In this document: positions 6,147 through 56,000 of the stretch, one piece after another
Layout of the letters: each line of letters starts with the position of its first letter
Numbering within the stretch: position 1 is the stretch's first letter
Notes under the pieces: generated by a model
Seen by the model: the letters and a program-made list of their open reading frames with translations, nothing else
Told to the model about the DNA's origin: nothing
The model's database searches: none
Translations under genes and position numbers: made by a program
NCBI GenBank assembly: GCA_964600295.1
Contig: CAZRIY010000001.1
Span: forward strand, 24,810 to 88,809
Length of the DNA: 64,000 nucleotides
DNA from: an uncultured Candidatus Saccharibacteria bacterium
GTDB lineage: Bacteria > Patescibacteriota > Saccharimonadia > CAZHVB01
Reading direction: 5' to 3'

Positions 6147-6185
6147 AAAAAATCCCTAGCACAGGATGTGCTCGGGATTTTTTGG
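6147..6185. terminator. Bidirectional intrinsic terminator-like hairpin
   Basis: ATCCCTAGCACA-GGA-TGTGCTCGGGAT stem flanked by an A-run on the 5' side and a T-run on the 3' side. Confidence 0.4.
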
Positions 6186-6607
6186 TGGAGCTGGGGGGTA
6201 TTGCACCCCCGTCCGCAAGCTAACAACCCACTCCTCTACAGGCATAGTCTGCTTGAAAGCATTTAAATCTTCACGCCTAATGTCTAAAAACAGACCAAAT
6301 AACAGTTGGCGCTAACCTTCTATATTCTCGATAAACTGCGAAGGTAACAATTTATCCAGCCGAAAATATGACACCGGGAATCCTCTATTCGGCGTTGAGG
6401 AACCGATGGCTGTATAACCCTTAGGCTACAGCTGGTGCAAACTGTTGAACGTTAAAAACGTTCGCTAGTTTTGCGAATATAGATTTGGCATCTATAAATG
6501 TCGAGCTTAATAACGCTCGGCTCAGAGCGACCTGCCAAGTAGATTGTAAAAGTACTTACGTCGAAGCTTGTCAGCCCCACAAAAAACTTTACCACATCTG
6601 TCAGCTT

Positions 6608-13754: not shown

Positions 13755-14123
13755 CGAGACTGCTGGATGATCGCTTCCGCCTTCGGGTGTGAGAGGAAAG
13801 TCCGGACAGCGTAGGGTAAGGACGGTCGCTAACGGCGACCGGGTGTGAGCCCAGGGAAAGTGCCACAGAGACTATACTAGCCCCGCCATCGGCGGGGCCA
13901 AAGGTGAAAAGTGTCGCCATAGGCGACTCCCGTGTTGGTGACAACACGTGGTGGTAAACCCCGTCCGCTGCAAGGTAGCTGGTTCATTATCTCGGAGCTA
14001 ATCTGGGAATTCTGGTACCCGCCAAGAACCGGCGATATAGAGCCGCACGAGCTCGCGCAGCAATGCGGAGCCAAGATAGATGATCATTCTTGACAGAATC
14101 CGGCTTACAGGCAGTCTCGAGCA
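13755..14123 (+). ncRNA. rnpB: RNase P RNA (bacterial type A)
   Basis: GAGGAAAGTCCGGAC P4 5' strand. ACAGAATCCGGCTTAC P4 3' strand. GGTAAACCCC...GCAAGG element. P1 pairing CGAGACTGC/GCAGTCTCG. Confidence 0.85.
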
Positions 14124-29412: not shown

Positions 29413-30465
29413 TTAGAGTCGGCGGCTGCCGGTTGGAGCCAAAATGCGGATGACCGATGATATAGCAACCAGCAGCAATATCAACAATACAAAGGCCGCA
29501 GTACCACCGATCACAAAGATAGTTACAGCTACCAGAATAGTTATTAAATAGATAATTAGCACAGCCCGGCGATGGCTGACCAAACCGGAGTCTAAAATTC
29601 GATGGTGGAGGTGCCCGCGATCCGACTTAAAGGGTGATTGTCCTTTTGATATCCTGCGCGCGAAGACCCAAACCATATCGACTACGGCCAGACCCAAAAC
29701 TAGGGCGCCAACGGTGATTTTGGAGCCTGAGTAGATCGATAATACTGCCAGAATTAGCCCAATAACGTAAGCCCCGCTATCGCCCATGAAAATGCGGCTA
29801 GGGTAAAAATTATAGGGTAGGAAGCCCATTAGTGAGCCCAGCAATCCGATGGCTAGGATAGCTACAGTGGCATGGGCCATCCCCGGCGTGATGGCCATGA
29901 TAAATAGCACCAGCGCCGCGATAGCCGACACGCCGCCGGCCAATCCATCCAAACCATCCAACAAATTGACGGCGTTGATCATACCGACAATCCACAACAG
30001 GCTGACGAAATTGGCTAGCGGTATCAAGTTGAAGTTAAAGCCGAATAACTCTAGTGGAATGCGCCAACCATCCAGAGCAATGGCGCCGCCTAAAGGATTG
30101 CTAATATAGATAATGCCCAAACCCCCCGCTAACACCACGCCAGCAGCCATAAACTGCCAAATTAACTTGGTGGGAGCACTCAAGCCGCGAATATCATCAA
30201 TTATGCCAACAGCTAACAAAATCAATAAACCGCCGAGCAGACCTAGCAAAGGTCGGTCGAGTTTGACAAAAAATAGCAGCGGCAGCAGCCAACCGGCGAT
30301 GATGGCTATTCCACCTAGTCGTGGTGTGGGTTTGTTGTGCAATTTACGCCGCTTATCCGGCTTATCAACCGCTCCCCAGCGGAATGCCAAACGCTTAGCC
30401 AGTGGTGTCACCAGCAAGCTAGCAACAAAGGCCCAACCAAAAGCCATAATATATGTAGAATTCAC
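29413..30465 (-). CDS. Polyprenyl-phosphate HexNAc-1-phosphate transferase (WecA/TagO/MraY superfamily, WecA-like)
   Basis: IIDDIRGL, NAVNLLDGLDGLAGG, FMGDSGAY, DRGHLHHRIL. Ten or more TM segments. Confidence 0.75.
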   Translation of the reverse strand: MNSTYIMAFGWAFVASLLVTPLAKRLAFRWGAVDKPDKRRKLHNKPTPRLGGIAIIAGWLLPLLFFVKLDRPLLGLLGGLLILLAVGIIDDIRGLSAPTKLIWQFMAAGVVLAGGLGIIYISNPLGGAIALDGWRIPLELFGFNFNLIPLANFVSLLWIVGMINAVNLLDGLDGLAGGVSAIAALVLFIMAITPGMAHATVAILAIGLLGSLMGFLPYNFYPSRIFMGDSGAYVIGLILAVLSIYSGSKITVGALVLGLAVVDMVWVFARRISKGQSPFKSDRGHLHHRILDSGLVSHRRAVLIIYLITILVAVTIFVIGGTAAFVLLILLLVAISSVIRILAPTGSRRL

Positions 30466-37506: not shown

Positions 37507-37764
37507 TTAATCATATAGCTGAGGGTGGGTACCAATGATATCAAATATGGCTTCATCGTTTCGCAGTAGATACAAAGCCCTATAATCGCCAGTGATGTCT
37601 ATGCTGCGATACTGTTTGTACTTGCCTTTGAGCTGGTGGTTTCTTAATTGGGAATCAAGTGGGTTGATGCTGAATAACCTGATCCTTTGAACGAGGCGGT
37701 TTCGCAGGGTTGGATCTAGTTTCTTTGATTGTTTGATGAAATGTTTGGAATAAGCAACCTTCAT
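37507..37764 (-). CDS. YafQ/RelE-family type II toxin
   Basis: ..GDYRALY..IIGTH, RelE/YafQ fold. Overlaps the antitoxin gene by 4 nt. Confidence 0.7.
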   Translation of the reverse strand: MKVAYSKHFIKQSKKLDPTLRNRLVQRIRLFSINPLDSQLRNHQLKGKYKQYRSIDITGDYRALYLLRNDEAIFDIIGTHPQLYD

Positions 37765-38042
37765 TCTAGTTCGGCAGCAAGAAAGTCCAAGGCTTTCTTG
37801 TTATTGTTGAACTTGTGGTAATGACCCTTATCAATTTCGGCTTGAGAGATTTGCATCAACTTCTGGGTCGCCTCGTTGGGAGCTTCAGGCAAATCAAAGA
37901 CAACGCTCTGCTCAGTGGCAAATCGGCGTAATTCATTATTTAAGACCGCACTAATACTCACCCCGAGCTTACTGGCAGTCTCCCTCGCTAACTTCTTAAG
38001 TTTGGGGTCAGTTTTTAAATTGATAACAGCATACTTGCTCAT
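37761..38042 (-). CDS. DinJ/RelB-family antitoxin
   Basis: MSKYAVINLKTDPKLKKLARETASKLGVSISAVLN.., DinJ-like. Confidence 0.7.
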   Translation of the reverse strand: MSKYAVINLKTDPKLKKLARETASKLGVSISAVLNNELRRFATEQSVVFDLPEAPNEATQKLMQISQAEIDKGHYHKFNNNKKALDFLAAELE

Positions 38043-38101: not shown

Positions 38102-38659
38102 TTAATCTGATCGGAAGCGCTGCCATTCGATAGCTTTACCGCGAGCCACATAGTCGGACATCACCAGCTCGTCGTAGATGCCGTCGATCAAGTCGTAATC
38201 CTTGGCCTCTTCCAGATTTACCCAGGCCGAATCTACAGTTTCACCCTGCTGCAGCCTTATCTTTCCACCCGCGTAATCGGCCAGGCATGAGATGACTAGG
38301 GTGGGGGCGCCATCTTCATGGATTCTGGCTAGGCTGGTAACATAGCGCACATTGGCTATTTTGAGACCAGATTCTTCGTCGACTTCCCTCGTTAAGGTTT
38401 TTTCCAGGACGTTGTACCAATAATCCTCGGTGTCTTTGGGCTGGTTGATAAAATCGCTAACCTCCAGCTTGCCACCCGGGACGGTCCAGCGGTTGGGGAA
38501 GCGTTTTTTATCCGGCGAACGTTGTAAAATTAAGTATTTATCGCCGCGGGCTACAATAGCGGTGGTGACAACTTCAAACTGGTCATTATCTTCAGGTTGC
38601 GCTATCACTTCTTGGGCTTTGGCTTTGGCTTTGGCTTTGGCTTTGGCTTTTGCTGCCAC
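38102..38659 (-). CDS. NUDIX hydrolase with an N-terminal (AK)n tract; GTG start
   Basis: Nudix box GGKLE...REVDEESGL. The N-terminus VAAKAKAKAKAKAKAQ is encoded by the hexanucleotide repeat. Confidence 0.7.
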   Translation of the reverse strand: MAAKAKAKAKAKAKAQEVIAQPEDNDQFEVVTTAIVARGDKYLILQRSPDKKRFPNRWTVPGGKLEVSDFINQPKDTEDYWYNVLEKTLTREVDEESGLKIANVRYVTSLARIHEDGAPTLVISCLADYAGGKIRLQQGETVDSAWVNLEEAKDYDLIDGIYDELVMSDYVARGKAIEWQRFRSD

Positions 38660-39273
38660 TGCTTGCTGTAAATTACATGATCAATGGCTGTGTCGTAGTC
38701 GTGGAGCTCGCCGGGACTAAACCAAAGAGCAATTTCGGCTTCGGCGGTTTTGGGGCTATCACTGGCATGGACCACGTTCTTGGTGGCCCAGTCCCCCGCA
38801 TCGGATAGTTCGTAAGAGTCGATCGTATAGTCAAAACCAATGCTGCCAACATCGGCGCTGCGCGGGCTGGTGCTGCCGCGCATTTTGCGCACTAGCTCCA
38901 CCACATGGGCTCCCTCCAAAACTAATGCAATAACCGGACCAGCAGTAATATGTTCCATCAGTTTGCGACGGGTATTTAAGCCCAGATCTCGAGGTTTTAA
39001 CGGTGGTTTTACACCTTTTGCAAGATAATTTTCATAGGTTCGAGTGCCAGTACCCACTAACCAATCTTCGCTATCTGTGTAATGCTCGGCGGCTAATTTA
39101 TCATCTGGCCAGAGCATCTTGAGGCCAATGATTTTGAAACCCTTGCGTTCAAAACGCTGAATGATTTCCCCTGTCAGTTTGCGTATTACCGCATCGGGTT
39201 TTAGCAGTACCAAAGTTCGTTCGCGACGAATTTGCTCTAGCTTCTTTGGATCAGGCTGTAATCGTTTAGGCAT
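38605..39273 (-). CDS. ndk: Nucleoside diphosphate kinase with an N-terminal extension and a C-terminal (KP)6 tail
   Basis: ERTLVLLKPDAV.., NVVHASDS (catalytic His region), ..QQKPKPKPKPKPKPKK end. Confidence 0.8.
   Translation of the reverse strand: MPKRLQPDPKKLEQIRRERTLVLLKPDAVIRKLTGEIIQRFERKGFKIIGLKMLWPDDKLAAEHYTDSEDWLVGTGTRTYENYLAKGVKPPLKPRDLGLNTRRKLMEHITAGPVIALVLEGAHVVELVRKMRGSTSPRSADVGSIGFDYTIDSYELSDAGDWATKNVVHASDSPKTAEAEIALWFSPGELHDYDTAIDHVIYSKQWQQKPKPKPKPKPKPKK
38615..38650. repeat. Hexanucleotide microsatellite (GGCTTT)6 (CAAAGC on the coding strand)
   Basis: Six perfect tandem units plus partial flanking units. They lie in the overlap of ndk (KP repeat) and the NUDIX gene (AK repeat). 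Confidence 0.85.
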
Positions 39274-39278
39274 TTTAA

Positions 39279-40070
39279 CTATCTTAGCAAGCCAATGGCT
39301 ATAACCAGAATGGCCAAGCCAATGCGGTAATAGGCAAAGACGGCTAGTTTATGCTTGGCCAAGAATTTTAGCAAGAAATCTATGGCTAAATAGCCACTAA
39401 TGGCAGCAGCTAGGATACCGACCATAAAAACGCTTATGTTTGATGTTATATTACCAACGTTACCGCTGAAGCTAAGCTTTAATATTGCCCCAAAAGTTAC
39501 CGGTATCGCCAACAAAAATGAGAACCTAGCTGCAGCTTCGCGGCTAAACCCCAGCCACCTACCGGCCACAATGGTAATACCAGACCGCGATACGCCGGGG
39601 ATTAGGGCTAAACCTTGAGCCGCACCGATTGCCAGGGCGCTAGGGTTGTTCATTTTTTCTACGTCTTTAGAGCCGGGTAAACGATCTACCCAAAGCATCA
39701 CTAAGCCGACTACTAATAGGTTGAATGCCACAAGACCAGTGGAACGCAGCGAATCTTCGGCCAGCGGCTGGAGCAATAACCCCAAAATTATTGCCGGTAC
39801 AGTGCCCAAGGCTATATATAACCCCAACCGCCGGTCTCCTCCCTTGAAAACTGCAGTTAAGATCCCGGCGATCTCTTTGCGGAAATAGATAACCAGGGCC
39901 GCCAGCGTTCCGATATGCAACATGACGTCAAACAATAAGTCGCCAACTGGCGCGTTAAACAGCTTCTCGGCCAGGATCAAATGGCCAGAGCTGGATACCG
40001 GAATAAACTCGGTCAACCCCTGGATAATCCCCAAAATGAGCGCCCACAGTAACATAGTTACAAGATACAA
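39279..40070 (-). CDS. uppP: Undecaprenyl-diphosphatase
   Basis: GLTEFIPVSSSGH and PGVSRSG motifs. Eight TM segments. Confidence 0.85.
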   Translation of the reverse strand: MYLVTMLLWALILGIIQGLTEFIPVSSSGHLILAEKLFNAPVGDLLFDVMLHIGTLAALVIYFRKEIAGILTAVFKGGDRRLGLYIALGTVPAIILGLLLQPLAEDSLRSTGLVAFNLLVVGLVMLWVDRLPGSKDVEKMNNPSALAIGAAQGLALIPGVSRSGITIVAGRWLGFSREAAARFSFLLAIPVTFGAILKLSFSGNVGNITSNISVFMVGILAAAISGYLAIDFLLKFLAKHKLAVFAYYRIGLAILVIAIGLLR

Positions 40071-41133: not shown

Positions 41134-44100
41134 CTAGCCCTGAACCTGATAATTGAATATCAGATCAATAGTAGCCGGTTCTTCCAGGTAGATGGTGAAG
41201 CCGGTGGCCGTGGCTTCAATGCGGTAGCGCGGCGCAAAACCGTTGGTGGGGCTAGCTACCACATTCGGCAGGTTGCTGTAGGCTCGAGCAAAGTCGAAAT
41301 GGACCGAGGTGGCCCCAGCCGGAATCGTCAGCTGACCGCGGGTGTCGTTGTTACCCACAGTATGACCCAGGACCTTGAGATCTTGCACAGTAGCCAGTCC
41401 GCTGACAGTCAGCGGGCCAGCCAGCGTAGTCGAACCAGTTACCTTAAGATCAGCCACAGTTGCCAAACCCGTCACTTTAAGATCCTTGGTGGTGGTGAGA
41501 TCGCTAACACTAAGAGATGTAAAGTTGCCGTCGGTCGATTGGGGACTGGTTTGGGCGGGCTGCACGTTATTGGCATTCGAGAGGGTAAACCAACCTGGGT
41601 TAACAAATACCTCAATTGTGCCAGTACCGCCTGCGCTGTATGCCTGTAAAGCCACGCCAACGATTCGGCCAGATGCAGTAGCTTTCATACCAACCCCAGC
41701 TAGTGACGAAGCCGTGATCGGATCGCCCACCGCGATGCTACCACCCTCTGTTGAAACTTTAGTGGGTACCCGACCGATTAGGGCAATTGGATAACCGCCG
41801 TCGCCGCTCCCTAAAACTTGGTGAGGCTGAGTAGACACAATGCCAATAGCACTGGCTTGATAAGCATTGGTAGTCTTAACGACTGAGCTATTGCCACTGG
41901 TTGCCACCAGCTCGCCCGGATGGAGATTTTCATTTGAGGTGTAATTTTCAGCAATATCCGCTCCGTTGGCCGTACAAGTACCAGCCGTCACAATCCCGCC
42001 CTTAACCGCTATGCCATTGAGGGTTTCTCCCGCCGCGCAAGTGGCGGTTATACCCGAAGTACCGCCGTTGCGATAAACGCCTGTTGCATTAATATCGCCA
42101 GTTACATCCAGCGCATAGGCTGGCGCCGAGGCCGTACCGATTGCTAAGCTACCAGCTGAATCAAAGTGGCTAAGTACGGTTCCGGATGAATTTTGCAGCT
42201 GCAGCAGATCAGCGGCCTGCGAAGCTATGCCTCTTATACGGATACCTACATCGTTGACACCTACGCTAGTTACTCGGAGAGTGGCACTAGCATCTATTGC
42301 GTTTGTGCCAGCGGTTAAACGTAAGTTGTTAACCGAATTTCCAGCTACCTGAAAATTATCATCAGTCTTCAAGCTATCAACAGCCGACCGATAGAGGTTG
42401 GTGTCGCCGCCAAAATTAATCCCACCACCTGCGCTAGTGGATGCAACGAAGTTCAGTTTTGCATTACTCGTAACTCCACTACCAATACCCAGATTAGAGT
42501 CGGTAACTAAAAAGCTGGCAGCCGACCGGTAGAGGTTCGTGTCGTTATCGGCCGCTCCGGTGCCGCCAAAGTAGAGTTTGCCTGAACCTTCGATACGGGT
42601 ATCGCCGGCTACATCAAGCTTGAAATCTGGACTGGTGGTACCGATACCGACGTTTCCATTCGATTTAACCGTCAATGTAACATTGGGCGTGAATAATGCG
42701 TCTGCAGTGGTGGCACCTGTCCCGCCGATAAATCTAATGTCTCCTGCCGCACCTGGATAGCTCGCAACCATACCCGAGTAGCCAATTGATGCGTGGGTAA
42801 TGGTGTATCTAAATACTCCACCAGCATCTACATAAAAGTTTGAACCAAATCCGCCTGAGCCGCTATCGGCCCCCGATGTAGTCGCCCAAGAACCGGTAGT
42901 TAGTCTTCTATTGTTCCCGCTCAATATCGCATTTCCTGCAACGTCTAGGCTTGCGCTAGGTGCGGTAGTACCAACACCGACGCGACCATCACCCCTAACC
43001 GTTAGAGCATTGTTAACGTAGCTAGCGCCATAATTGATTGATAACAGGTCATAGCCAGTGCCAGTAGCTCCACTGCCGATCCAGACAATATCGTCGTTTT
43101 GCGTGCCGGAAGGCGCCTCAAAGCGGGCAATTACTGCATTGGCAGCACCATTCTCAACGTGCAATCTGGCCGATGGGACTGTTTCGCCGATGCCGACGTT
43201 GCCGTCGTTGCGAACATAGAGTTTTGAACTATCGGCAGAGTCAGTTACATTCAAGGCCGCAGCTGTATTATCCGCAGTACTGCCCTTTACTACTAGCCTG
43301 GCCGAGGTGGGAGAGGTATTGCCGATGCCCAAATTCCCAGAACCCAGTATCGTCAGTCTTTCGTCTGGAGTTCCCCCACCATTAAAGGTATAAAGGGCCG
43401 TTCTTATTGGTGAACGTCCAGCTACTAAAATATTTTGACCAGATTGTTGCAATGCCAAGGAAGTTACATCATCGTAATTCGCCATCAGATCTACCCTATA
43501 TGATGTAGGGTTATCTGCAGCGGATAATCTTAATTTTGCCCCACCGGCAGCAACAGAACGCTGCAAATGCAATAACACTGACGGATCTGTAGTCCCGATG
43601 CCGACGCTTCCTGCAGGCGTAATGTTTACAACATCGCTTCCACCGACGGTGACCCGAAGATTACCTTCGCTAGTACCATTGGTTTCTTGGATGCCAAAGG
43701 CCCAGTCACGAGCCGTTGTGGTTTCGGCTGCTGTGGATTGGATGTGGAGACTCGTTGGTCCCAGGTAAAGATCGCGCCAACGAGCAGGGGCTGAGCCAAG
43801 ATCGTAGGTATCATCGACTCCGGGCAAGATGTGGCCGGTGACCGTCAGGTTGCCCGTTATGTTCTGACCACCGTTGACAGTAAGAGCACCCCCAACAATG
43901 AAGTTATCGTCGGTTTTGAGAGTATTAGCAGCCGAGCGGTAGAGGTTGGTATCACCCGACGAGTTAGCGTCAAAGATGATTCCCGCAGGACCAACGACGC
44001 CAAAGTCCGATGCATGGAATGAATCGTCGGTCTTGAGAAGGCTAGCACTTGCTCGGTAGAGGTTAGTATCTAAAGCATTGGTGCCGTCTCCCCATTGCAG

Positions 44101-47100
44101 AGTTCCGCCAGCCTGCGCTAGCCATCGAGGAAGAGCATCGCCCGAGACTATGGTAGATAGACCGGTAGCTGCGCTGGTGCTTCTATTGACCCGGAGTTGA
44201 TCATCGGTCTGCAGTAAATCTGCTCCTGCGCGATAAAGATTTGTGTCAATCGTAGTACCATTACCCCATTCCAAAGTACCACCAGATAGAACTCTTAAAC
44301 GCGCAGCTGTATCGCCAATGAGTTTTATGTGTTGGGCCCAGTCACCAGCCGCACTGTTGGTAATATTAACGTAGCTAGCACTGGAGTCTGTCTGAAGTCT
44401 GATTTCTTCGCCAGCTGCATTTGAAACTCGTAGATCATCATCATTTCCCAAGGAAAGCGTGTCAGCAGCGCTGCGGTAAAGATTGGTATCGCCAGCAGAT
44501 CCAAAAAGAATCGTGGGTGATCCCGAAGGTCCAGTCGTTCCGATCCCAACTTGACCTGCTCCAATAGATGCATAGATAGGCTGGCTTGACCAGAATTCAT
44601 CATCAGTACGCAGATTGTTAGCTGCATTGCGGTAGAGATTAGTATCGCCGCCGATCAAAAGACCGCCACTCCCACCCGGGACTGATAGTTGAAGTTGGCC
44701 AGCACCCGAAAGTGTCATAGGGTTGCTAGCATCAGCGAACTGCCACCGGTGGGCCCCACCAGTCGGAGCCCAATAGCGCATAGCAAGCCCTTCACTAGAC
44801 AGACCATAGCCGCTGTCTCCAATCTGGACTGTTGGAACCGTATTAGAATAATTTCCAGAGGAGAGTAATACGGTTGAATTGTTTCGTAGAGTACCATTTA
44901 TATCCAGTTTATAGGTGGGTCCAGTAGTCCCAATCCCAACGTTGCCAACACCATCAATCCGCATTCTTTCGCTATTACCTCCTATAGCAGTTGTGGTGAA
45001 GAACTTCAGCAACCCTTGGTAGTCATCGGCCGTCGCCGACCCCTTAGCCCCCTGAATAGTAGCGAATGAATAAGGGTTAGCGGTATTACCACTCTCACCG
45101 GCAAAACGAAGCGATGGACCAATGTCTACCGCAGCAGCAGTATTGGAAACAAGGGTGACTGCGGAGGTGTCGAAGTTAGCGTTCGGACTGGTACCGACGC
45201 TAATTACTTGTAGTTTGCTTGTCGGCCCTATAGTGCCGATCCCAACATTGCCACTAGATAGAACTGTAATGTGCTGAGATCCGCTACCGTTAGCTCCCAG
45301 ATAAATAGGTCCCGTATTAGAATTCATGTACAGGTTGTGCCCAGAAGCAGATTGGTAAATATTTGCGGCTTGTGCACCAGAGAAGTACAGCTCAAAACCT
45401 GAACCATTTCCGATGTTCAGGGTGCCAGATACATCAGAGGTTGCAATGGAGGCGACTGCGCCCACTCTAAGGTTACCCGAAGATGCCACACAACCTGTAT
45501 CGCTAGCTTCGATGCAAACTCCACCGCCGACTACGTGGAGCCTTGAATCTGGCCCAGTGGTACCGACTCCGACATTGCCACTTGATGCACTTATGGCTAG
45601 AGGAACAGTTCCCGAGAATCCTGAACCTATACCGATCTTAAAGGTATCAAGATCGGCTCCTTGGGCGCCTATGGTCCAGCGGGCTACGCTAGAGTTCTCT
45701 ATAAGCCGAAGGCCGACTTCGTCGGGAGTCGCCGTTTCGGTGCCTATATCGGTATAAGCATCAGCGCCAGCGCCGCCATTATTAAGTAACTGGCCCACTA
45801 CAGAGCCGCTGCTACGTACGTCTAGCGTACGAGCCGGCCCAGTAGTCCCAATCCCCACATTGCCACTAGGCGTGATGTTTACGACATCACTTCCTCCGAC
45901 AGTAACTCTAAGGTTACCTTCGCTGACGCCATCGGTTTCTTGGATGCCAAAGGCCCAGTCCCGAGCGGTGGTGGTTTCGGCGGCTGTGGATTGCAGGTGT
46001 AAGCTGGTTGGTCCAAGGTAAAGATCTCGCCAGCGGGCAGAGGCTGAGCCGAGGTCATAAGTATCATCGGCTCCCGGGAGAATGTGCCCGGTAACGCTCA
46101 AGTTACCGCCCGAGGTTATGCCACCGTCTGCGTAGAAATTACCATCAACCTCCAGGTCGCCCTCTATGAACAAATCATCATCCGAAGCCAGACCATGGCT
46201 GGTGGCTCCGCCCGAATCCGAAATCGCGTTGTAGGCTAGGCCAGTTACCCCACCAATGTTCAGAGTATCCGTATCTGCAAGATAAACTTGTCCGCCCGCT
46301 GGATTTACCGTTAAATCTGCATCCGACGTAATATCGTCTCCATTGACAGTTAAGTCTCCCGTAATCGTAACGTCACCTGTAGTACCGACCGTTACAGCAG
46401 TTAAGACATCGGATTCATTGCGGATTGAGAAACTACCGCCGGGATCGGAACGCAATCGCCAATTTTTAGCAGCAGTATTATTTAGCCCCAAGAAGACCCC
46501 TGGGCTACTTCCCTGTGAAGCTGTTACCGACACTGAGCGTGCAGCGAAATCGGCATCGGCGCCGGACGGAGTTATGGTTAGATCGCCAACATTATCAGTT
46601 CTAAAATCTGTGTAATTAGTGCTGTCCGTATGGGTTAATCGCAACTGGGGATTGGTGGTATCAAGCACCTCGAATTTACGATCCGGGCCTATGGTGTTTA
46701 TGCCCACATTGCCGGTATTTAAGACTGTTAGTCTTTCTTGGAATGCTGACGTGTCAGACGACGAGATTGCCAAGCGGCCCGCTGGTGCCGCACCCTCTGC
46801 ACCCCGTACCTGCCTGAGGGCGCCACCTACGTAGGAGTCTGCGCTAGATGGTGTTAGTAGCAATTCGGCAAACGAACTATTGTTTGTGGTATCACTGTTT
46901 TCGATACGTGCGCCTACGCCGCCCCCAACATTACTGGCCTGTACTTCCAGTTTTTGTGATGGCGAGGTCGTGCCGATACCGAGATTACCAAAACTGTTTA
47001 GGCGCATGCCTTCAACTTGGTCATTACCGCTACCGTACCCAAAAACCAAATCTCCAGGCGCGGTTGAGGCAGTACGATCATGGAAGACCGCCCCTATAGT

Positions 47101-49779
47101 TGGGCCCTTACGAAGAGTGCCGCCAGTGTCATATGTCAGGAAGCCTAGGAGTGCGAGATTGTTGTTTGTGATGTCGCTATTGACTATTTGAGCATAGCGA
47201 TTGGCGGCCGAAGTATATGTAGTAAGAGTGTTGGCCTTTTCAACATGTAGAAGTGCTCCGGGACCTGTGGTACCGATGCCAACGTTGCCACTAGCATCGA
47301 CTACGAACGGGGTTGAATCGGTAAAAGTGCCATCGTCGTTGACACGGAAGGCAGCCGCAGTGCCGGCTTGAGTGATCTCGAAGGTGGTATCGGTAGTAGT
47401 ATCGGTTAGTGTAATCTCAATATCCCGGCCGTCAGAAGTAGCAATGGTATTACCATTGGCATAGGCGTTTTGTAGCGTTACTGAGGGGTCAGAACCGCCA
47501 GAACCGGAACAGGTCGAGAGTTGATTGGAACCGTTGCGGCAGACCGAGGTAGAGCCGGCGGCACCGAGGGTGGTCACCGCCAGAGTACCGGTAAAGTTGG
47601 CAGCGGAAGTGATAGTTTGACCATTGATCGTACCAGAAACCAGCAGATTATCTTGGATATCCACCGTGCCACCAGCATTGACGATTAAAGTGGCGGCAGT
47701 ACTAGTAATATCTCCACCGTTGACGGCCAGATCGCCCGAACCGGCCGCGCAGGCGGTATCACTAGATTCGATACAAACTCCCCCACCAACCACGTGAAGC
47801 TTGGAATCCGGTCCTGCCGTACCGATACCGACGTTGCCGCCATCTTTAACAGCGAGAACGGTGTTGGTACCATCCTGCAAAGTTAAGATATCGCCAGTGC
47901 CATCTTGACGAACATTGAGAGCGGTTTTGTCAAACAGCGCATTATCAGCCCAAAAGATGCCCAGGGCACTTGTTGAGGTTGTTGTGTTGTTCGAATAAGC
48001 GCGAAATACCTGATCGGTTGAAATAGTGCCGTCGATTTCTAATAAAGCGCTGGGGCTATCCAGCCCGTCACCAATGACCACTCGACCGTCGGTATTGATA
48101 CGCATATGTTCGGTGCCACTAGTTTCAAATCCAAGGTCAAAACTATCATTTGTACCGAGCATAGCTACTTCGCCAAAGGAATTGCCGCCCTGGACAAAGG
48201 CTACGCCACTGCCGCTGGTGAAACCGCAGGATGCTGCACCCTGCAGGCAGACTGTACCGCTTTCGTTGGGTAAGGCGTAAGCCCGATTATCTGTTAATGT
48301 TGTGGTCTGTACAGCGCCGGTGAAACCGGAGTTGGTTAGATTTAAGAGGGGTGTGGTTACTGAGGTGCCGAAGGTGGGGTTAGCCACCGTCGCCACCGCA
48401 ATATTACCGTTGGCTCCCCCATCGCTGAGCAACAGGTTAGCACCGGCCGTTAACACCCGCTCGTTGGTTAAACTGGGATTAAGACTGAGGGTAACGTAAT
48501 CGGCACCGGCTGGGGCTGAACCGCCTCCGCCGATGCAGTTGCCAAAATTGGTACAGAAGTCGTAAACCCCAGCGGGATGGGCCGGTACCCGGTAGGTGGC
48601 ATCAGCTACCGGTGGAATGAAGGCTAAGGTGCTGGTAAAGCCACCGCTGGTGGCGGTGAGAGTGGTGGAAGCGTTGCCTTGGAGGGTTAGGGCTTGGTCG
48701 CTGGCACCGATGGTTAAGTCGGCGGTGGGGGTTAGAGTATTAGCGTAAAGAATATCGCCGACTGTTAGGCTGGCCTGGAAAGTATTATTACCGCTGAAGA
48801 CTTGGTCGGCGCGGTCGAGCAGGGCGACGTTGGGGGTCAGACGGGCATCGGCCAGGGTGCCGTGGCTGATGCTGCTGGCATTGAGGTTGGTAATACCAGC
48901 GCCGTCGCCAGCAATAGTAGTAGCACTCAGAGCCTGGAGGTTGGTATTGCCCTGGACGGTTAGATCACCTTCCAGCAAGGAATCCCCATGGACTAGCAGG
49001 CTGCCAAATTCTCCCTCTCCAGAGGTAGTTACGCTGTCAGAACTAAAATCATTAACCGTGACATCACCGAGGTTGCTGGTGCCGGTGACCTCGAGGTTGT
49101 TGATGGTGGCCAGACCGCTGACGTTGAGATCGATGAAATTAGCCAGCCGTCCATCCACTTGATCAACTTTGAGGTTGTTAATCTCAGCCTGATCTTTCAG
49201 ACCAGCCAGGCGGGCTTCAAGCTCGGCTTGCTGCTGTTTCTGGCGCTGGGCCAATTGATTAAGCTTGGTAACTGTACCGAAGATTAGCCAAGCTAATAGG
49301 CCGGCCGATAGCAGAATCAGTAGGATAAGCCAGAGGTGGCGCTTGCGGCTGGGTTCCGGCTCGTCATTGGTTGATTCCCCTGGAGGTTCTGGGGGTGGAG
49401 GCGACGGCTGAGGAATTATTGGCGGTTCTTCCACCATGGGATGGAATACGGGGGGTTGTCCAGTAGTAGAACTTGGATAAGCTACGCTTTGGTCTAGAGA
49501 TCCAACTTCACTACTGGATTGGACGGGCGCAGGTGTAAGCGGCGGAGTTGGGGAGGGCTCTGGAATGGGCTGGCTAGGAACAGTTGGCGGAGGGGTTTCC
49601 GGGGAAGTGGCAGATTGAGCCAGAGGTACTGCTGGAAATTGCGAATTTGTAGGCGGTGAGGGCTGATAAGTTTGGGGAACTGGCGGTAATTGAACCGGAG
49701 CTTCTCGAAAACCGGCAGATGCCCCTCCAATAGTTGAAGGGGCACCGTGAATTTGGCCGAAGATGTTTGTTTCAGTCAT
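41134..49779 (-). CDS. Giant (2881 aa) membrane-anchored repetitive surface fibre protein, tail-fibre-like
   Basis: Pro-rich N-terminus (~150 aa), one TM (HLWLILLILLSAGLLAWLIFG), a coiled coil, then at least 13 GNVGIGTTxPxxKLxV modules. Duplicated ..GHILPGADDTYDLGSAxxRWRDLYLGPTSLH.. units. C-terminal ~110-aa lectin-like domain shared with the next gene. Confidence 0.8.
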   Translation of the reverse strand: MTETNIFGQIHGAPSTIGGASAGFREAPVQLPPVPQTYQPSPPTNSQFPAVPLAQSATSPETPPPTVPSQPIPEPSPTPPLTPAPVQSSSEVGSLDQSVAYPSSTTGQPPVFHPMVEEPPIIPQPSPPPPEPPGESTNDEPEPSRKRHLWLILLILLSAGLLAWLIFGTVTKLNQLAQRQKQQQAELEARLAGLKDQAEINNLKVDQVDGRLANFIDLNVSGLATINNLEVTGTSNLGDVTVNDFSSDSVTTSGEGEFGSLLVHGDSLLEGDLTVQGNTNLQALSATTIAGDGAGITNLNASSISHGTLADARLTPNVALLDRADQVFSGNNTFQASLTVGDILYANTLTPTADLTIGASDQALTLQGNASTTLTATSGGFTSTLAFIPPVADATYRVPAHPAGVYDFCTNFGNCIGGGGSAPAGADYVTLSLNPSLTNERVLTAGANLLLSDGGANGNIAVATVANPTFGTSVTTPLLNLTNSGFTGAVQTTTLTDNRAYALPNESGTVCLQGAASCGFTSGSGVAFVQGGNSFGEVAMLGTNDSFDLGFETSGTEHMRINTDGRVVIGDGLDSPSALLEIDGTISTDQVFRAYSNNTTTSTSALGIFWADNALFDKTALNVRQDGTGDILTLQDGTNTVLAVKDGGNVGIGTAGPDSKLHVVGGGVCIESSDTACAAGSGDLAVNGGDITSTAATLIVNAGGTVDIQDNLLVSGTINGQTITSAANFTGTLAVTTLGAAGSTSVCRNGSNQLSTCSGSGGSDPSVTLQNAYANGNTIATSDGRDIEITLTDTTTDTTFEITQAGTAAAFRVNDDGTFTDSTPFVVDASGNVGIGTTGPGALLHVEKANTLTTYTSAANRYAQIVNSDITNNNLALLGFLTYDTGGTLRKGPTIGAVFHDRTASTAPGDLVFGYGSGNDQVEGMRLNSFGNLGIGTTSPSQKLEVQASNVGGGVGARIENSDTTNNSSFAELLLTPSSADSYVGGALRQVRGAEGAAPAGRLAISSSDTSAFQERLTVLNTGNVGINTIGPDRKFEVLDTTNPQLRLTHTDSTNYTDFRTDNVGDLTITPSGADADFAARSVSVTASQGSSPGVFLGLNNTAAKNWRLRSDPGGSFSIRNESDVLTAVTVGTTGDVTITGDLTVNGDDITSDADLTVNPAGGQVYLADTDTLNIGGVTGLAYNAISDSGGATSHGLASDDDLFIEGDLEVDGNFYADGGITSGGNLSVTGHILPGADDTYDLGSASARWRDLYLGPTSLHLQSTAAETTTARDWAFGIQETDGVSEGNLRVTVGGSDVVNITPSGNVGIGTTGPARTLDVRSSGSVVGQLLNNGGAGADAYTDIGTETATPDEVGLRLIENSSVARWTIGAQGADLDTFKIGIGSGFSGTVPLAISASSGNVGVGTTGPDSRLHVVGGGVCIEASDTGCVASSGNLRVGAVASIATSDVSGTLNIGNGSGFELYFSGAQAANIYQSASGHNLYMNSNTGPIYLGANGSGSQHITVLSSGNVGIGTIGPTSKLQVISVGTSPNANFDTSAVTLVSNTAAAVDIGPSLRFAGESGNTANPYSFATIQGAKGSATADDYQGLLKFFTTTAIGGNSERMRIDGVGNVGIGTTGPTYKLDINGTLRNNSTVLLSSGNYSNTVPTVQIGDSGYGLSSEGLAMRYWAPTGGAHRWQFADASNPMTLSGAGQLQLSVPGGSGGLLIGGDTNLYRNAANNLRTDDEFWSSQPIYASIGAGQVGIGTTGPSGSPTILFGSAGDTNLYRSAADTLSLGNDDDLRVSNAAGEEIRLQTDSSASYVNITNSAAGDWAQHIKLIGDTAARLRVLSGGTLEWGNGTTIDTNLYRAGADLLQTDDQLRVNRSTSAATGLSTIVSGDALPRWLAQAGGTLQWGDGTNALDTNLYRASASLLKTDDSFHASDFGVVGPAGIIFDANSSGDTNLYRSAANTLKTDDNFIVGGALTVNGGQNITGNLTVTGHILPGVDDTYDLGSAPARWRDLYLGPTSLHIQSTAAETTTARDWAFGIQETNGTSEGNLRVTVGGSDVVNITPAGSVGIGTTDPSVLLHLQRSVAAGGAKLRLSAADNPTSYRVDLMANYDDVTSLALQQSGQNILVAGRSPIRTALYTFNGGGTPDERLTILGSGNLGIGNTSPTSARLVVKGSTADNTAAALNVTDSADSSKLYVRNDGNVGIGETVPSARLHVENGAANAVIARFEAPSGTQNDDIVWIGSGATGTGYDLLSINYGASYVNNALTVRGDGRVGVGTTAPSASLDVAGNAILSGNNRRLTTGSWATTSGADSGSGGFGSNFYVDAGGVFRYTITHASIGYSGMVASYPGAAGDIRFIGGTGATTADALFTPNVTLTVKSNGNVGIGTTSPDFKLDVAGDTRIEGSGKLYFGGTGAADNDTNLYRSAASFLVTDSNLGIGSGVTSNAKLNFVASTSAGGGINFGGDTNLYRSAVDSLKTDDNFQVAGNSVNNLRLTAGTNAIDASATLRVTSVGVNDVGIRIRGIASQAADLLQLQNSSGTVLSHFDSAGSLAIGTASAPAYALDVTGDINATGVYRNGGTSGITATCAAGETLNGIAVKGGIVTAGTCTANGADIAENYTSNENLHPGELVATSGNSSVVKTTNAYQASAIGIVSTQPHQVLGSGDGGYPIALIGRVPTKVSTEGGSIAVGDPITASSLAGVGMKATASGRIVGVALQAYSAGGTGTIEVFVNPGWFTLSNANNVQPAQTSPQSTDGNFTSLSVSDLTTTKDLKVTGLATVADLKVTGSTTLAGPLTVSGLATVQDLKVLGHTVGNNDTRGQLTIPAGATSVHFDFARAYSNLPNVVASPTNGFAPRYRIEATATGFTIYLEEPATIDLIFNYQVQG
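48370..49140. repeat. About 0.75-kb segment ~98% identical to 60777-61547 (direct repeat between the two giant genes)
   Basis: Identical antisense ORF peptides appear in the ORF track at 48830 and 61063. One 60-nt comparison (48841-48900 against 61248-61307) shows a single mismatch. Confidence 0.7.
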
Positions 49780-50033
49780 TTTGCCGATTTTTGTTTACAA
49801 GCATAAGTTTAATCCTGGTAGGGCGGAATGTAAACAATTTTTATTCAAAAAAATATGGGGTAATTTTGCGAGTATGTAACGTTTATTGTCGGTAATAAGT
49901 TTGACCAAAATGGGTTCTGGGGCACTACTGATCGGCCCAAACGGTCGAAATTGAAATGTTCGTTTAGATGTAGGGTTGTGGCTTCGACTACAAAACCCTC
50001 TAATTTCGGTTTTTTCGGCAGTTTCGCGATTTA

Positions 50034-53000
50034 TCATTGTTGCACCATATAATCGAACGTTAGATCGGCGGTTGTAGGTTCGGCAAGATGGATGACAAAA
50101 CCGGTGGCAGTTTTTTCAACCCAGTAAAAGCTGCCGGGGTTGGCTTGAGCGCTAACCACCACGTGGGGTACCCCACCGTAGGCGCGGCTAAAACTGTAGC
50201 TGGCGCTAGTAGCCCCGGCGGGAATTGTGAGAGTCCCTCGTGTATCAGCGTTGCCAATCACGTGGCCACTGATGACGATGTCGCCCACGCTGGTTAAGCC
50301 GGTAACCTTGAGTTCGGCTATGGTGGCTAGGCCAGTAACTTCCAACTTGGCAGAGGTTACCAGCTGCACCACCTTCAGTTCGTTGGCGGTAATGGTGTTG
50401 GCTACATTAAGATCGCTAAAGTCGGAGTTGTTCTGAATCGCCTCAGCATCCGTTTCGGCCTGGGCTGGGCCTTCAGTCTCCGCCTGAGCCTCATCACCTG
50501 GCTGGGCGTCCTCAACTGGTTCGAGTTGGCTCAGCCGTTGATCTAGCTCATCCACCCGCAGCTTAAGTTCGGCGGTGGCCTGGATGTTGTAGATGGGCAG
50601 GGCGCTGAAATTAATTTGTTTAAAGCCTAGGGAGTCCATGGAGACCAATTCTGGGAACAGGGCCTCAACTTCTTGGGCAATCAAACCTTGTTGGGTGGCG
50701 GTCCCCAGGTGACGATCGGGGAATTCCTCGGCCCGCCAGTTGTAAGTAACCGCCCGCAGCTGGCCAAAACGGTCCAGAATCGGTTCGAAGCCTTGAATGT
50801 TGGTCTTGAGGCGTTCGTCTGAGGAACAGGTGCCGGCAATCACGGTACCGTCCGCATCCTCCACACAGCCGTCCGTACCTATACCAACTCGCACATTTCC
50901 GGCCACCACTAATTTTTGAGCCGAGGGATCCGTAGTGCCGATGCCGACGTTGCCAGTACTATCAATGCGCATTCGTTCGGCATTATTTGTACCAAATAAC
51001 AAAGGTGTAGCTCCGAACGTGCCTATACCAAGCGAGGTATCACCTGCAGATACAATGTTAGTGGTGTCGGTAGCTGCCCGTCCGAAGTAACTAACCCCAG
51101 TGTAGGTGGGACCAAAGGCATACGTTTCTAGACTTGCTCCGCCGCTGGCGGTGTTTCTAACGGTCGATGCAGCGTATTTGGTGGTGGAGGTCGCTGTGAG
51201 GAATTGCAGAACATTGGCATCGGTTGATTCGGAAACCTCGAGTTTACCGGCAGGTCCAGTTGTGCCAATGCCGACGTTGCCGGCGCTTGTGACACGCATG
51301 CGCTCCGCAAGCGTGCCCGTGTTGGGATTTGTGTAAAATAGCAATGCCCCTGATTCATCTCCAGCTGTGGCATTTTCTTTTTGTCCCCAAATCCCGGCGA
51401 AGACAGCTTGGGCTGATTGAGCAGTTTTATAACCCTTAAATAACAAGCTTCCGCCGACACCAGCTGCTGCGGTTCGAGTATCATTGAGGATTTGGCTCCA
51501 GCCAGTACCGGTTAAACTTGGTGCTGTACCCGAAGCCACTTCCAGCCTAGCGGCGGGAGTAATAGTGCCGATGCCGACGTTGCCATCGCCCCTGAGCACT
51601 AGGATATTATCTGTGTTTAAGCCTCGAAACCCTAATAAATCATTCGGCGTTGATGCGTCTAGGTCGGTCTCGATAAAGAATCGATCTGTTTTATCACTGG
51701 CGGCAAAAATTAATCTTTTATCATCAACAGTTTCTCCGCCAGCGATTTCAATCTCACCGTTTACTTCTAGTTCTTCACTCGGACTATTAGTGCCAATACC
51801 GACTAGACCACCATTGAGAATCGTCATGTTAACGGCTGAACCGGTACCAAACTGTAAGGCAAAATTACCGGCCTTGGCACCTAATAGAGTGGCGTTTGCT
51901 AATGCATTGGTAAAGCTTGCGCCCGATGAATCTTGGCCAGCAGTTTGGATAGTACCAAGTATCGAGGTAACCCCGGCATTATCCTGCGAGAAAGATATAT
52001 AGGATGTACCAACTTCGCCCCCGTCGTTATCTGTATCTGCAGTTAGTAGTAAGGCGCTGTTGGCTCCGCTTTGGACCGCTATAGTTTCATTAGCAGTGGT
52101 ATTGGTACCCACTACTAAACGGCCCTCGGTAGGTGTGCTGTCACCGATCCCAACATTGCCTGAAGATTCCAGAACAGTTAGGTGGGTAGTTGCCGCACCA
52201 GCGTTGCGGACATTAAAGCTACTGCCGGCCCCCAAATCGTTAAAGATGCCGGGGGCCGTCAGGATGATTGAACCATTGGTTCCCGTAATGAAGTTGTTTG
52301 TAGCCCCTGCACTAACGGTAAGCCCTTGGGTCGTTCCATCAGAGCGATAGAAGCGAAGTGTGCCCGCGTTATTCAGACGGACATCACCGGTCACATCAAG
52401 TTTGAACCCAGGACCCGTATTACCAATACCAACGTTGCCGGTTGCACCATCGCCATATAGGAAGGTGGTGGCAAAGGTATTGGGAGTTGACTGATCGACT
52501 ACTCCCAGTTGGAAGTCGGCACCTGTACCTCCGCCGAAGGCAGAACTGAGTTTTATGGCTGAGGTACCGAGTGTGCCACTATCGCTATTTGTGAGTAGCA
52601 GACCGCCCTCAAAAGCCGTGCCGCTATCTGAAAGTATGGTTGTGTGATCGGCATACGCTGGCGTGGCACTAACATTGCCAAGTTTGGAACCACCGGAAAC
52701 CCTTAAGTTGCCGCTGGCAGATGCGCATCCAGTGTCACTAGATTCAATACAAACTCCGCCCCCAACGACATGTAATCGAGAATCTGGCCCCGTGGTGCCA
52801 ATCCCGACGTTGCCGTTTTCATCAATCCTCATCCTTTCTGTTGGTGATCCACCATTGGCAGTAGAAAAGCGTAAAGAACCAACGGGATTGACAGTCAGAG
52901 CATCCTCTTTATTACTACAAATATTAGCAGTTCTTTTATCTGCTCCGCTCAATCCGGTAGAACCAAACTGCATGCAACCCATAAGTGAGGTGTCCCCAGT

Positions 53001-56000
53001 CGCGGCGCTGGAAAGGACGAGATTACCGAAGGACGCTGTAGTAGTACCCGCGTTATGAACTTGAAGGTCTGTTCTAGTACCGCCCCCTCCCAGGCCACCT
53101 GGCGCAGTAGTCCCGATGCCGACGTTGTTACCAGCAGTTACATATAGCGCATTGTTATTGACATTGAAGATACCGTTAGTGTTTGCGCTAACAGCGACCG
53201 TACCGCCATCGCTATTTAAGTGTAAGGTACTGGCGGCACCGTTGTTTCGCGCCAGGATTTCGTTATCATCCATGGTTATGTTAGTGCTAGTAGTGGATCC
53301 GGTTACCAAGTAACCTCCACTGGCCAAGGCAGAATCTGTACCACCAACTACGTGAAGTTTTGCGGACGGATCGATAGTGCCTATGCCAACGTTGCCACCC
53401 GATGGCTGCAGATTTAGATTGTAGGCAGTTGCGGTACCATCAGTTCTTTGCGCCTGTAGCCACGGGTCGCCATCTCCGGCAACTCCAGCTAGCAAACCGT
53501 AGTTCACATCAGTATTCGTTAGGTAAAAACCTCCGCTTGCTGAACCTAGTGTGGGTGAGTTTACGGCTGTCGAACCAGTGATTTGCAGCCGCACTTTTGG
53601 TGCAGCAGTACCAATACCTACATTGCCGGTTACATTCAGTGAGGCCGTATGGGCGGAGTTGGTGATTAGTCCGGTGGCTACAGTGGGCGAGCCACCCTGC
53701 AAGGTATCGGCATAAACCGCAGCAGTAGTGCCGGCATGGAACTGGACGTTATCCAGGCGAATGGTCTCGGCTATACCTTCGGTGAATCGCAATTTGGCAT
53801 AGGCAGTATTGGCCGGGGCGGTGCCAGTAACGGTAACTTTTTGCCAGCCACTGACACCAGTAGTGGCAGTGATGGTAGCACTTTCGCCCAATGATACTTG
53901 ACTAGCATCAAACCAAAGAATTCTGACCCGCCAGTTGCCCCCAAGACTGCCATCTTGGGCCTTCAGCCAATAGTTGCCGATATAGTCGGCGGCGGCGGTA
54001 GCAGGCATAAAGTCGCTCTCAAGAAAGTGAGTGCCCGTAGCATCGCTGACCATTTCCAGGGCGTAGCGGCCGCCGCCGCCCGTTTCGGCCACGGCAGTGG
54101 GTCCGCCGGACAGGGACCAGTTGGTGGTGTTACCGCTTTCAAAGCCAGAATTGGGTACTAGGTTGGTGGTGTCGCTATTTACAAAACCGGCGAGACCATT
54201 GAGAACCTGGACATTACCGGCCACATCTAATTTATAGGTGGGGGTGGTTGTACCGACTCCTACGTTACCGGTGGAATCTATCACCAATCTTGCAGTACCT
54301 TCATCGGCAATGGCAAAGCCACCCGGGAAGGAATTACCCGATCCTCCAATTGTAAGATCCCAGTTGCTGCCTTCGGTGCCATGAGTTAGACGCATACCAT
54401 TTAATCCAGTGCCGCCGGCTCCTTGGACTTGGAGACGAGTACCAGTACCGGTGATAGAAGTAGTGCCTATGCCGATGTTGCCAGCAAAGTATGAGTTCCC
54501 AATACCGGTTACGGTGAGTTCTCCGATAGTGGTTAAACCTTTGGGCACAGCAGTTGAAAGTGGGCTAAAGGCTAGCGGAGTACTACCAGTGTTAACCTGT
54601 ACGTTATCGAAATAAACAAATTTGCCAACTGTGGGTGCACTTGTTGTACGTATATGTATTGTCCCGGTATTGTCACTTGCAGTTGTAAGGATCATGGTAA
54701 CCCGCTGCCACTGATCTCGCAGACTCATATCAGCGTTGTATTTAGTTTGGGTAGAACCGGCAAAACCTCCATCATCTCCGATAGTTATTTGGCCACCGTC
54801 CCAATCTGCTGGCACGTATACATAGAAATACATTGAGTAAGTAGTGGTTGCGGCCAAGACCAGTGTAGGTGGAAGGGCTAGCCGGTTATCATCTTGATAT
54901 GTAGCCTTTAGTGAGTAGAGGCCGTGAAGAGCTTGATCAGTAACTGAGGCAATAGTATTGGTTCCCCGCTGCGCCCAACCGCTGGTGGAGGCATTTTCGA
55001 CGCTTGGATTTGATATTAAGTTGGTTAACCCACCACCAAAGCCACCATATGTTTGTACAAAATCATGATCAGTTTGTGATTGCAGGATATCCCCTCCTTG
55101 CAAGTCAAGCTTAGCTTGGGGAGCAGTAGTGCCAATTCCGACATTGCCACCAGGAGTGATATTTACAAGATCAGATCCACCCATGGTGACTCTCAGGTTA
55201 CCTTCGCTGGCCCCATCAGTCTCTTGAATGCCAAAGGCCCAGTCCCGGGCCGTGGTGGTTTCAGCGGCAGTAGATTGAATATGCAAGCTAGTGGGTCCGA
55301 GATAAAGATCTCGCCAACGGGCTGCCGCTGAGCCCAGATCGTATGTATCATCGGCTCCGGGCAGAATGTGGCCAGTGACGGTTAGGTTGCCGCCAGAGGT
55401 TATACCGCTATCCGCATACAGTGTGCCGTTAACTTCTAGATCGCCCTCGATAAATAGGTCGTCATCCGAAGCCAAACCATGGCTGGTAACTCCGCCTGAA
55501 TCCGAAATTGCGTTGTATCCAAGCGCGGTTACCCCGCCGATATTCAAGGTATCACCATCCGCAAAATAGACTTGCCCGCCGGAAGGATTAACAGTTAGGT
55601 CTCCGCCACTATCGGCCTGGAATTCGGTGTAAACCGAGCCATCGGTGTGTGTGAGGCGCAGCTGAGGGTTGGAGGCATCCAGTACATCCAGCTTGCGATC
55701 TGGCCCTGTCGTATTGATGCCGACGTTTCCGGCATTATTTATACGCATACGCTCGGCTTCAGTCGCAGAACCATCTGGCGTTGTATAAAACTGCAAACGG
55801 CCAGGCATATCGCCATCCCCAGGAGTCGCATCAACTGCAGCAACTATTCTAGCGGCCGTTTCGTATGAATTGGCATCATAGCCGGTAAATGAGAGCCCTC
55901 CAATGGAGTCGCCAGAAGATACAACAGCTGGGGACCCAAGGCTACCACGAGATTTTCTGACTTGAAGCGCTACACCGTTGGCGTCCGCACTGGCGCGCTC

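Follow-up and report, generated by a model that had tools for sequence, protein, structure and literature searches.

A hexanucleotide microsatellite at the ndk/NUDIX junction of an uncultured saccharibacterium: an in-frame repeat in the Ndk tail and a probably miscalled gene overlap

The 3′ end of ndk in an uncultured Candidatus Saccharibacteria bacterium carries a perfect hexanucleotide microsatellite, a genuine but unremarkable in-frame repeat within a protein tail that varies. A first-pass annotation of the window (the whole 64-kb stretch of DNA that was analyzed) had proposed that this repeat is read in two frames within a 55-bp gene overlap, as (KP)6 at the C-terminus of nucleoside diphosphate kinase (Ndk) and as (AK)6 at the N-terminus of a downstream NUDIX hydrolase. 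The Ndk half of the proposal is supported, and the 55-bp dual-coding overlap is, by comparison with homologs, most likely a start-codon miscall resulting from the longest-ORF rule. Judging from the same comparisons, NUDIX translation quite likely starts mainly or only at a second GTG, at 38608, which gives a shorter protein. The features at the junction are as follows.

38615–38650, minus strand (coding): perfect hexanucleotide microsatellite (AAAGCC)6, found by regex scan; it reads (GGCTTT)6 on the plus strand
38605–39273, minus strand: ndk, nucleoside diphosphate kinase, 222 aa (Pfam NDK 1.1e-36; NCBIfam Ndk models; 1630 homologs)
38605–38607, minus strand: TGA stop codon of ndk, forming GTGA with the proposed NUDIX start
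38102–38659, minus strand: longest NUDIX ORF, 185 aa, GTG start (Pfam NUDIX 6e-12)
38657–38659, minus strand: first in-frame GTG, from which the longest NUDIX ORF runs
38102–38608, minus strand: NUDIX hydrolase, preferred model, 168 aa, starting at GTG 38608–38606 with a 4-bp ndk overlap

Within the 64-kb window, (GGCTTT)6 is the sole perfect tandem repeat of at least 18 bp with a unit of 2–9 bp. It forms the core of an imperfect array at 38611–38654 (7.3 copies, 94% match) whose score of 74 is the highest that TRF assigned in the window. A search with the repeat 36-mer allowing up to three mismatches matched a single locus in the window, in three offset alignments, and none of 100 dinucleotide-preserving shuffles contained any match to the 36-mer. 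The repeat thus consists of perfect head-to-tail copies of a unit within the 1–6 bp range of microsatellites, far beyond what chance produces, and is not a chance feature. The regex scan, TRF, and the shuffles bear out the first-pass annotation on this point, and its sequence facts on the repeat, the ORFs, and their frames were all correct. The AAAGCC repeat is free of stop codons in all three frames, which read KP, AK, and SQ.

The product of ndk is a member of the NDK family: it matches Pfam PF00334 with 126 bits (cutoff 27), and the catalytic H169, located in KNVVHASDS (NxxH[GA]SD motif), is invariant across 60 sequences. The best of the 1630 homologs is named as a Saccharimonadia Ndk. The protein ends in ...YSKQWQQKPKPKPKPKPKPKK*, and the array precedes the stop codon in the (KP)6 frame, as originally described. 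Past the conserved Trp206, the tail is QQ(KP)6KK, with 16 residues and a net charge of +8. Matches to solved Ndk structures stop near residues 200–205, and the AlphaFold2 (AF2) model of Ndk (pLDDT 91.7) has no regular secondary structure after residue 202. The tails of the 12 closest Ndk relatives (62–88% identity) are 10–18 residues long, non-repetitive, mostly basic, and rich in Lys, Arg, His, Pro, Ser, and Gly (for instance, QQKSKRRSNGKTADPRRK, QQHHKRSAKPKKT, and QQNHKRPANPKKAL); the median tail across 117 homologs is 6 residues. Two relatives, L015 and L016, have no NUDIX gene 3′ of ndk, yet their Ndk tails are basic (HHKRSAKPKKT and AHKRQGKSPKS, respectively). The basic tail thus appears to belong to the Ndk of this clade and not to be a by-product of an overlapping gene. 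Since the relatives' tails are non-repetitive, including the two that lack a downstream NUDIX gene, the repeat is, on sequence comparison, a species-specific in-frame version of a fast-evolving Ndk tail. As a matter of speculation, a (KP)n run would lend itself to electrostatic interaction with nucleic acids or membranes.

The Ndk proteins of this clade have 204–222 residues vs the usual length of about 140–150. An insertion of ~35–45 residues (Ndk residues ~56–103) splits the Pfam/NCBIfam NDK match into two stretches and is modeled by AF2 with high confidence as helices at residues 69–85 and 94–109. The best solved relatives are archaeal-type enzymes (2cwk and 1xqi), and the 195-aa 1xqi chain aligns in one stretch.

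The downstream gene encodes a NUDIX family member (Pfam PF00293, 46 bits vs a cutoff of 21.1), and every NCBIfam score for a NUDIX equivalog was below its cutoff. Its REVDEESGL segment matches the REUxEExGU part of the Nudix box, with R91, E92, E95, and E96 invariant. The box (residues ~63–98, long numbering) is atypical in that an insertion of ~14 residues interrupts the canonical Gx5Ex7 spacing. This insertion, FINQPKDTEDYWYNV, separates GGKLE...D69 from REVDEESGL and is highly conserved, with P74, K75, Y80, W81, Y82, and N83 invariant in 51 sequences. The NUDIX homologs number more than 3000 and come mostly from Patescibacteria; the best homologs of both Ndk and NUDIX come from Saccharibacteria/Saccharimonadia (TM7, Patescibacteria).

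Ahead of the NUDIX fold there are only two start codons that could be used, GTG 38659–38657 and GTG 38608–38606. From the first, the longest ORF reads M/V-AAKAKAKAKAKAKAQ, begins MAAKAKAKAKAKAKAQEV..., and shares 38605–38659 with ndk in a different frame; the GTG-opened 55-bp overlap of these two ORFs was therefore given with correct coordinates and frames in the first-pass annotation. The second GTG, which had not been weighed there, is codon 18 of the long ORF and gives the N-terminus M-IAQPEDNDQFEVV (M-IAQPEDND...). At the resulting junction, aagaaGTGAtag, GTG 38608–38606 overlaps the TGA at 38607–38605 in the geometry of an NTGA pair.

The lengths and N-termini of NUDIX homologs favor the second start. 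Among the best 120 of the more than 3000 homologs, all have 153–171 residues except one with 192, and they cover 83–89% of the 185-aa query, leaving its first ~17–25 residues unmatched. The number of residues ahead of a conserved E (FEVV/HEVV) is 5–15 in 118 of the 120 homologs; it is 28 in the long model and 11 in the short one. In the single long homolog (P0209, 192 aa), an internal Met lies where proteins of the family typically start, and its long N-terminus is thus itself evidently an over-call. Apart from this protein, none of the best 120 homologs has a comparable N-terminal extension. A genuine long dual-coding pair would show both the extension and the protein length conserved in orthologs, and neither is found here. 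AF2 models residues 2–17 of the long form as a detached helix with a pLDDT of 56–76 and has the fold start from residue 29. The (AK)6 N-terminus had been read from the longest ORF; with the extension absent from homologs and the short start typical of the family, it is probably not made.

The upstream GTG has the appearance of an accident. It takes its first base from the end of a Gln codon and the other two from the start of the codon for the conserved Trp (caG TGg), and in the closest relative (L001) the equivalent sequence is caT TGg, with a stop after 5 more codons. In the window, an in-frame stop lies only 8 codons 5′ of GTG 38659. Downstream of it, the NUDIX frame is open through the array because AAAGCC is stop-free in every frame. 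The apparent 55-bp overlap would thus arise because a repeat open in all three frames happens to follow a chance GTG just upstream, and GTG 38659 is probably not a functional start.

The called ndk/NUDIX overlaps in relatives are 32, 14, 11, 8, and 4 bp, with one 3-nt gap, and none is 55 bp. The position and length of this junction differ in every genome examined, and the junction is therefore, as far as these genomes represent the clade, fast-evolving. When the DNA is aligned, L001 and L014, the two closest relatives, have their NUDIX ATG ~5 nt from GTG 38608. Among the 41 same-strand junctions of the window, −4 is the commonest overlap and −55 an extreme outlier, followed by −29 and −17. The description of the overlap as unusually long is thus accurate for the two ORFs as called, but the outlier is probably a miscall, and the GTGA start gives an overlap of 4 bp. 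Taken together, homolog lengths, N-termini, the junctions of relatives and of the window, and the accidental-looking GTG 38659 favor the short NUDIX start. On these comparative grounds, NUDIX translation probably begins 3′ of the repeat, the outcome that the first-pass annotation had itself set against dual coding.

In most relatives, the Shine–Dalgarno (SD) sequence of NUDIX lies inside the ndk tail (GAAGGAG in L001, GGAGG in L003, and AAAGGAGG in L018), and the microsatellite sits where the relatives carry this SD. The relatives' NUDIX SD is written in Lys, Gly, Glu, and Arg codons of the Ndk tail (L001 880–935, L003 1225–1256, L018 1145–1174, and L017 2630–2660). In the window, no SD-like motif precedes GTG 38608 (caaagcccaagaaGTG), which counts somewhat against the short start, and no SD precedes GTG 38659. 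The SD core is likewise absent in five of the six other NTGA junctions of the window, and the gene at 29413–30465 has a start context, CAAGAAGTGA, identical to that of GTG 38608.

Several other properties were considered as discriminators and set aside. The presence of an SD does not separate the starts, as it is missing before both GTGs and also at most NTGA junctions of the window. Codon usage is uninformative as well: both frames use common codons, and in the window Lys and Ala are most often encoded by AAA and GCC. In predicted RNA folds, both GTGs are paired, and the fold is not significant (z = −1.19). Promoter-like sites that could serve an internal NUDIX promoter occur at chance level (4 found, 4.6 expected). 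Programmed frameshifting or an Ndk–NUDIX fusion was rejected, since canonical slippery heptamers and homopolymer runs are both absent and the homologs occur as separate proteins. A plus-strand ORF at 38430–38720 with an (AL)n stretch is spurious, being antisense to two genes with conserved homologs.

True dual coding, in which NUDIX is translated from GTG 38659 and the repeat encodes both (KP)6 and (AK)6, is an unlikely reading, also in a version with two NUDIX isoforms. The ORF is indeed open from 38659 and has a canonical GTG, AAA and GCC are preferred codons for Lys and Ala, and the short start is equally without an SD; relatives have called overlaps at the same junction that reach 32 bp, and the (AK) stretch is modeled by AF2 as a plausible amphipathic helix. 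Against this, the extension is missing from the best 120 homologs apart from one over-call, and GTG 38659, itself without an SD and inside a translated ORF, is a by-product of a conserved Trp codon; in the closest relative the position reads TTG and meets a stop after 5 more codons. In addition, the NUDIX frame stays open solely because the repeat lacks stops, and an overlap of 55 bp would exceed every other one in the window by a wide margin. Among the spurious long co-directional overlaps in a survey of 338 genomes, the most numerous were 5′ extensions of the downstream gene, a class that covers mispredicted start codons or 5′-end frameshifts (PMC2478687); the survey used a threshold of 60 bp, and the ndk/NUDIX overlap of 55 bp falls just under it. 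It is doubtful that the long NUDIX form is made at a meaningful level, and quite improbable that NUDIX or a minor isoform of it starts from GTG 38659 with the microsatellite being truly dual-coding. If this were nevertheless the case, one slippage event would resize the Ndk (KP)n tail and the NUDIX (AK)n helix together, and a single mutable tract would tune two nucleotide-pool enzymes in a reduced episymbiont genome.

It is very unlikely that the repeat is a contingency locus, a high-frequency switch akin to phase variation that acts on the expression or function of Ndk, NUDIX, or both. Perfect repeats of six units are prone to slippage, and this one lies directly 5′ of the probable NUDIX start, where a change in copy number would alter the upstream context. 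However, slippage of a 6-bp unit cannot turn a frame on or off, six copies are a modest number, and the spacing of stop and start codons is independent of copy number. The unit lies inside the ndk coding sequence, and no promoter-like site spans the repeat, which sets it apart from phase-variable loci. Furthermore, ndk and NUDIX encode housekeeping nucleotide-pool enzymes and not surface antigens, and no same-species sequence that could show variation was found. Exact-protein lookup returned no same-species sequence, the best matches in a search of 5.8 billion proteins had 88% identity for Ndk and 85% for NUDIX, and the best representative in a scan of GTDB genomes was 68% identical. A degenerate DNA pattern for W-Q-Q-K-P-K-P-K-P gave three matches in JGI metagenomes, all of them unrelated non-ndk sequences. 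That the repeat or its copy number is an assembly or sequencing artefact is scarcely credible. Metagenome bins can mis-assemble repeats, and nothing specific to this locus points that way; an array of 36–44 bp fits within any modern read, the reading frames on either side are undisrupted, and the 16-aa Ndk tail is within the length range of the relatives.

In the preferred reading, a repeat that codes for the Ndk tail is followed by a NUDIX gene that starts at GTG 38608. The microsatellite would be a slippage-generated, in-frame sequence encoding a lineage-specific, strongly basic (KP)6KK tail of Ndk, in place of the non-repetitive 10–18-residue tail, rich in Lys, Arg, His, Pro, Ser, and Gly, of its relatives. 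It probably arose when slipped-strand mispairing expanded a KPK-type proto-repeat (AAG CCn AAG). KPK and PKK motifs in the relatives' tails make such a proto-repeat plausible, and the identity of all six units suggests that the expansion was recent. Ribosomes that finish translating ndk would then reinitiate at GTGA and go on to translate NUDIX. We infer this termination–reinitiation coupling from the GTGA geometry, given that ATGA-type overlaps support such coupling, with SD motifs often, although not always, raising reinitiation efficiency (PMC6728339). In this single-coding model, each slippage step would add or remove two residues of the Ndk tail and leave the NUDIX protein as it is. The first-pass annotation had expected slippage to resize both tails in two-residue steps while keeping the frame; this should hold for Ndk, since the unit is a multiple of three, but not for NUDIX, as the repeat is probably outside it. 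A change in copy number would keep the stop/start geometry and affect only the A/C-rich stretch, free of an SD, that precedes the NUDIX start, and slippage would be unable to switch either ndk or NUDIX on or off.

The genes around the junction and other content of the window are listed below.

39279–40070, minus strand: uppP/bacA, undecaprenyl-diphosphatase (NCBIfam TIGR00753, 225.8 bits vs a cutoff of 217.5)
37761–38042, minus strand: RelB/DinJ-family antitoxin gene, directly downstream of NUDIX
37507–37764, minus strand: RelE/YafQ-family toxin gene, with a 4-bp overlap with the antitoxin gene
41134–49779, minus strand: giant ORF, 2881 aa, no Pfam match
49795–50037: small ORF between the giant ORFs, with a 4-bp overlap
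50034–62942, minus strand: giant ORF, 4302 aa, with CBM_4_9 (aa 2641–2765) and Peptidase_S74
6183–6578, minus strand: tmRNA gene
13755–14123, plus strand: bacterial class A RNase P RNA gene

The locus is a co-directional row of uppP (bacA), ndk, and NUDIX followed by the RelB/RelE pair, and uppP ends 5 nt before ndk. The order BacA–NDK–NUDIX recurs in L002 and L017, and L014 likewise has a RelB-like gene 3′ of NUDIX. About one-third of the window is filled by the two giant co-directional ORFs, the larger of which has its Peptidase_S74 "chaperone of endosialidase" domain near the C-terminus (aa 4041–4100); they are possibly giant surface or adhesin proteins of an episymbiont. The window also has seven tRNA genes, which together with the tmRNA and RNase P RNA genes are ordinary chromosomal content.

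The value of this locus is mainly for annotation: a repeat open in all frames beside a chance GTG can give the false appearance of a 55-bp dual-coding overlap, and annotation should place the NUDIX start at GTG 38608 (168 aa). The comparison also shows that the basic Ndk tail of this clade evolves quickly and that, in relatives with NUDIX next to ndk, the tail doubles as the site of NUDIX translation initiation. Should this species turn up in further samples, the locus would offer a convenient marker of strain-level repeat variation. The finding bears on no long-standing open question.

The locus resembles several known systems in part. The Lys-Pro spacer of TonB has an extended conformation. 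The proline-rich spacer of this protein contains (Glu-Pro)n and (Lys-Pro)n dipeptide repeats (PMC10666116), and the Ndk tail shares the Lys-Pro run, which is expected to be extended and positively charged; in the AF2 model, the tail has no regular structure. The two proteins belong to unrelated families, one run being a periplasmic spacer and the other the tail of a cytoplasmic enzyme with presumably another role, and the likeness is one of composition and not of homology. A further parallel is offered by in-frame coding microsatellites and VNTRs of bacteria, in which, as here, the unit is a multiple of three and encodes a dipeptide repeat in an unstructured terminal part of the protein. Slippage in these loci changes the length and keeps the frame, as would be expected for ndk. 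The practical hallmark of a VNTR is copy-number polymorphism, and for ndk the searches turned up no same-species sequence to compare; the repeat is also in a housekeeping enzyme as opposed to a surface protein.

The GTGA at the ndk/NUDIX junction matches the 4-nt ATGA/GTGA coupled pairs of same-strand genes (Huber et al., 2019, PMC6728339), although the 3′ end of ndk, unlike that of most relatives, has no SD, and coupling at this junction is putative. The apparent overlap itself resembles those attributed to mispredicted starts (Palleja, Harrington and Bork, 2008, PMC2478687): compared with its orthologs, the longest NUDIX ORF has ~17 extra residues at the 5′ end, and the ortholog length is regained from an alternative in-frame start, with the difference that the 55 bp here are just under the 60-bp cut-off of that study. 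The extension also crosses a microsatellite without stops in any frame, and this would be a specific reason for the probable overlap artefact at this junction.
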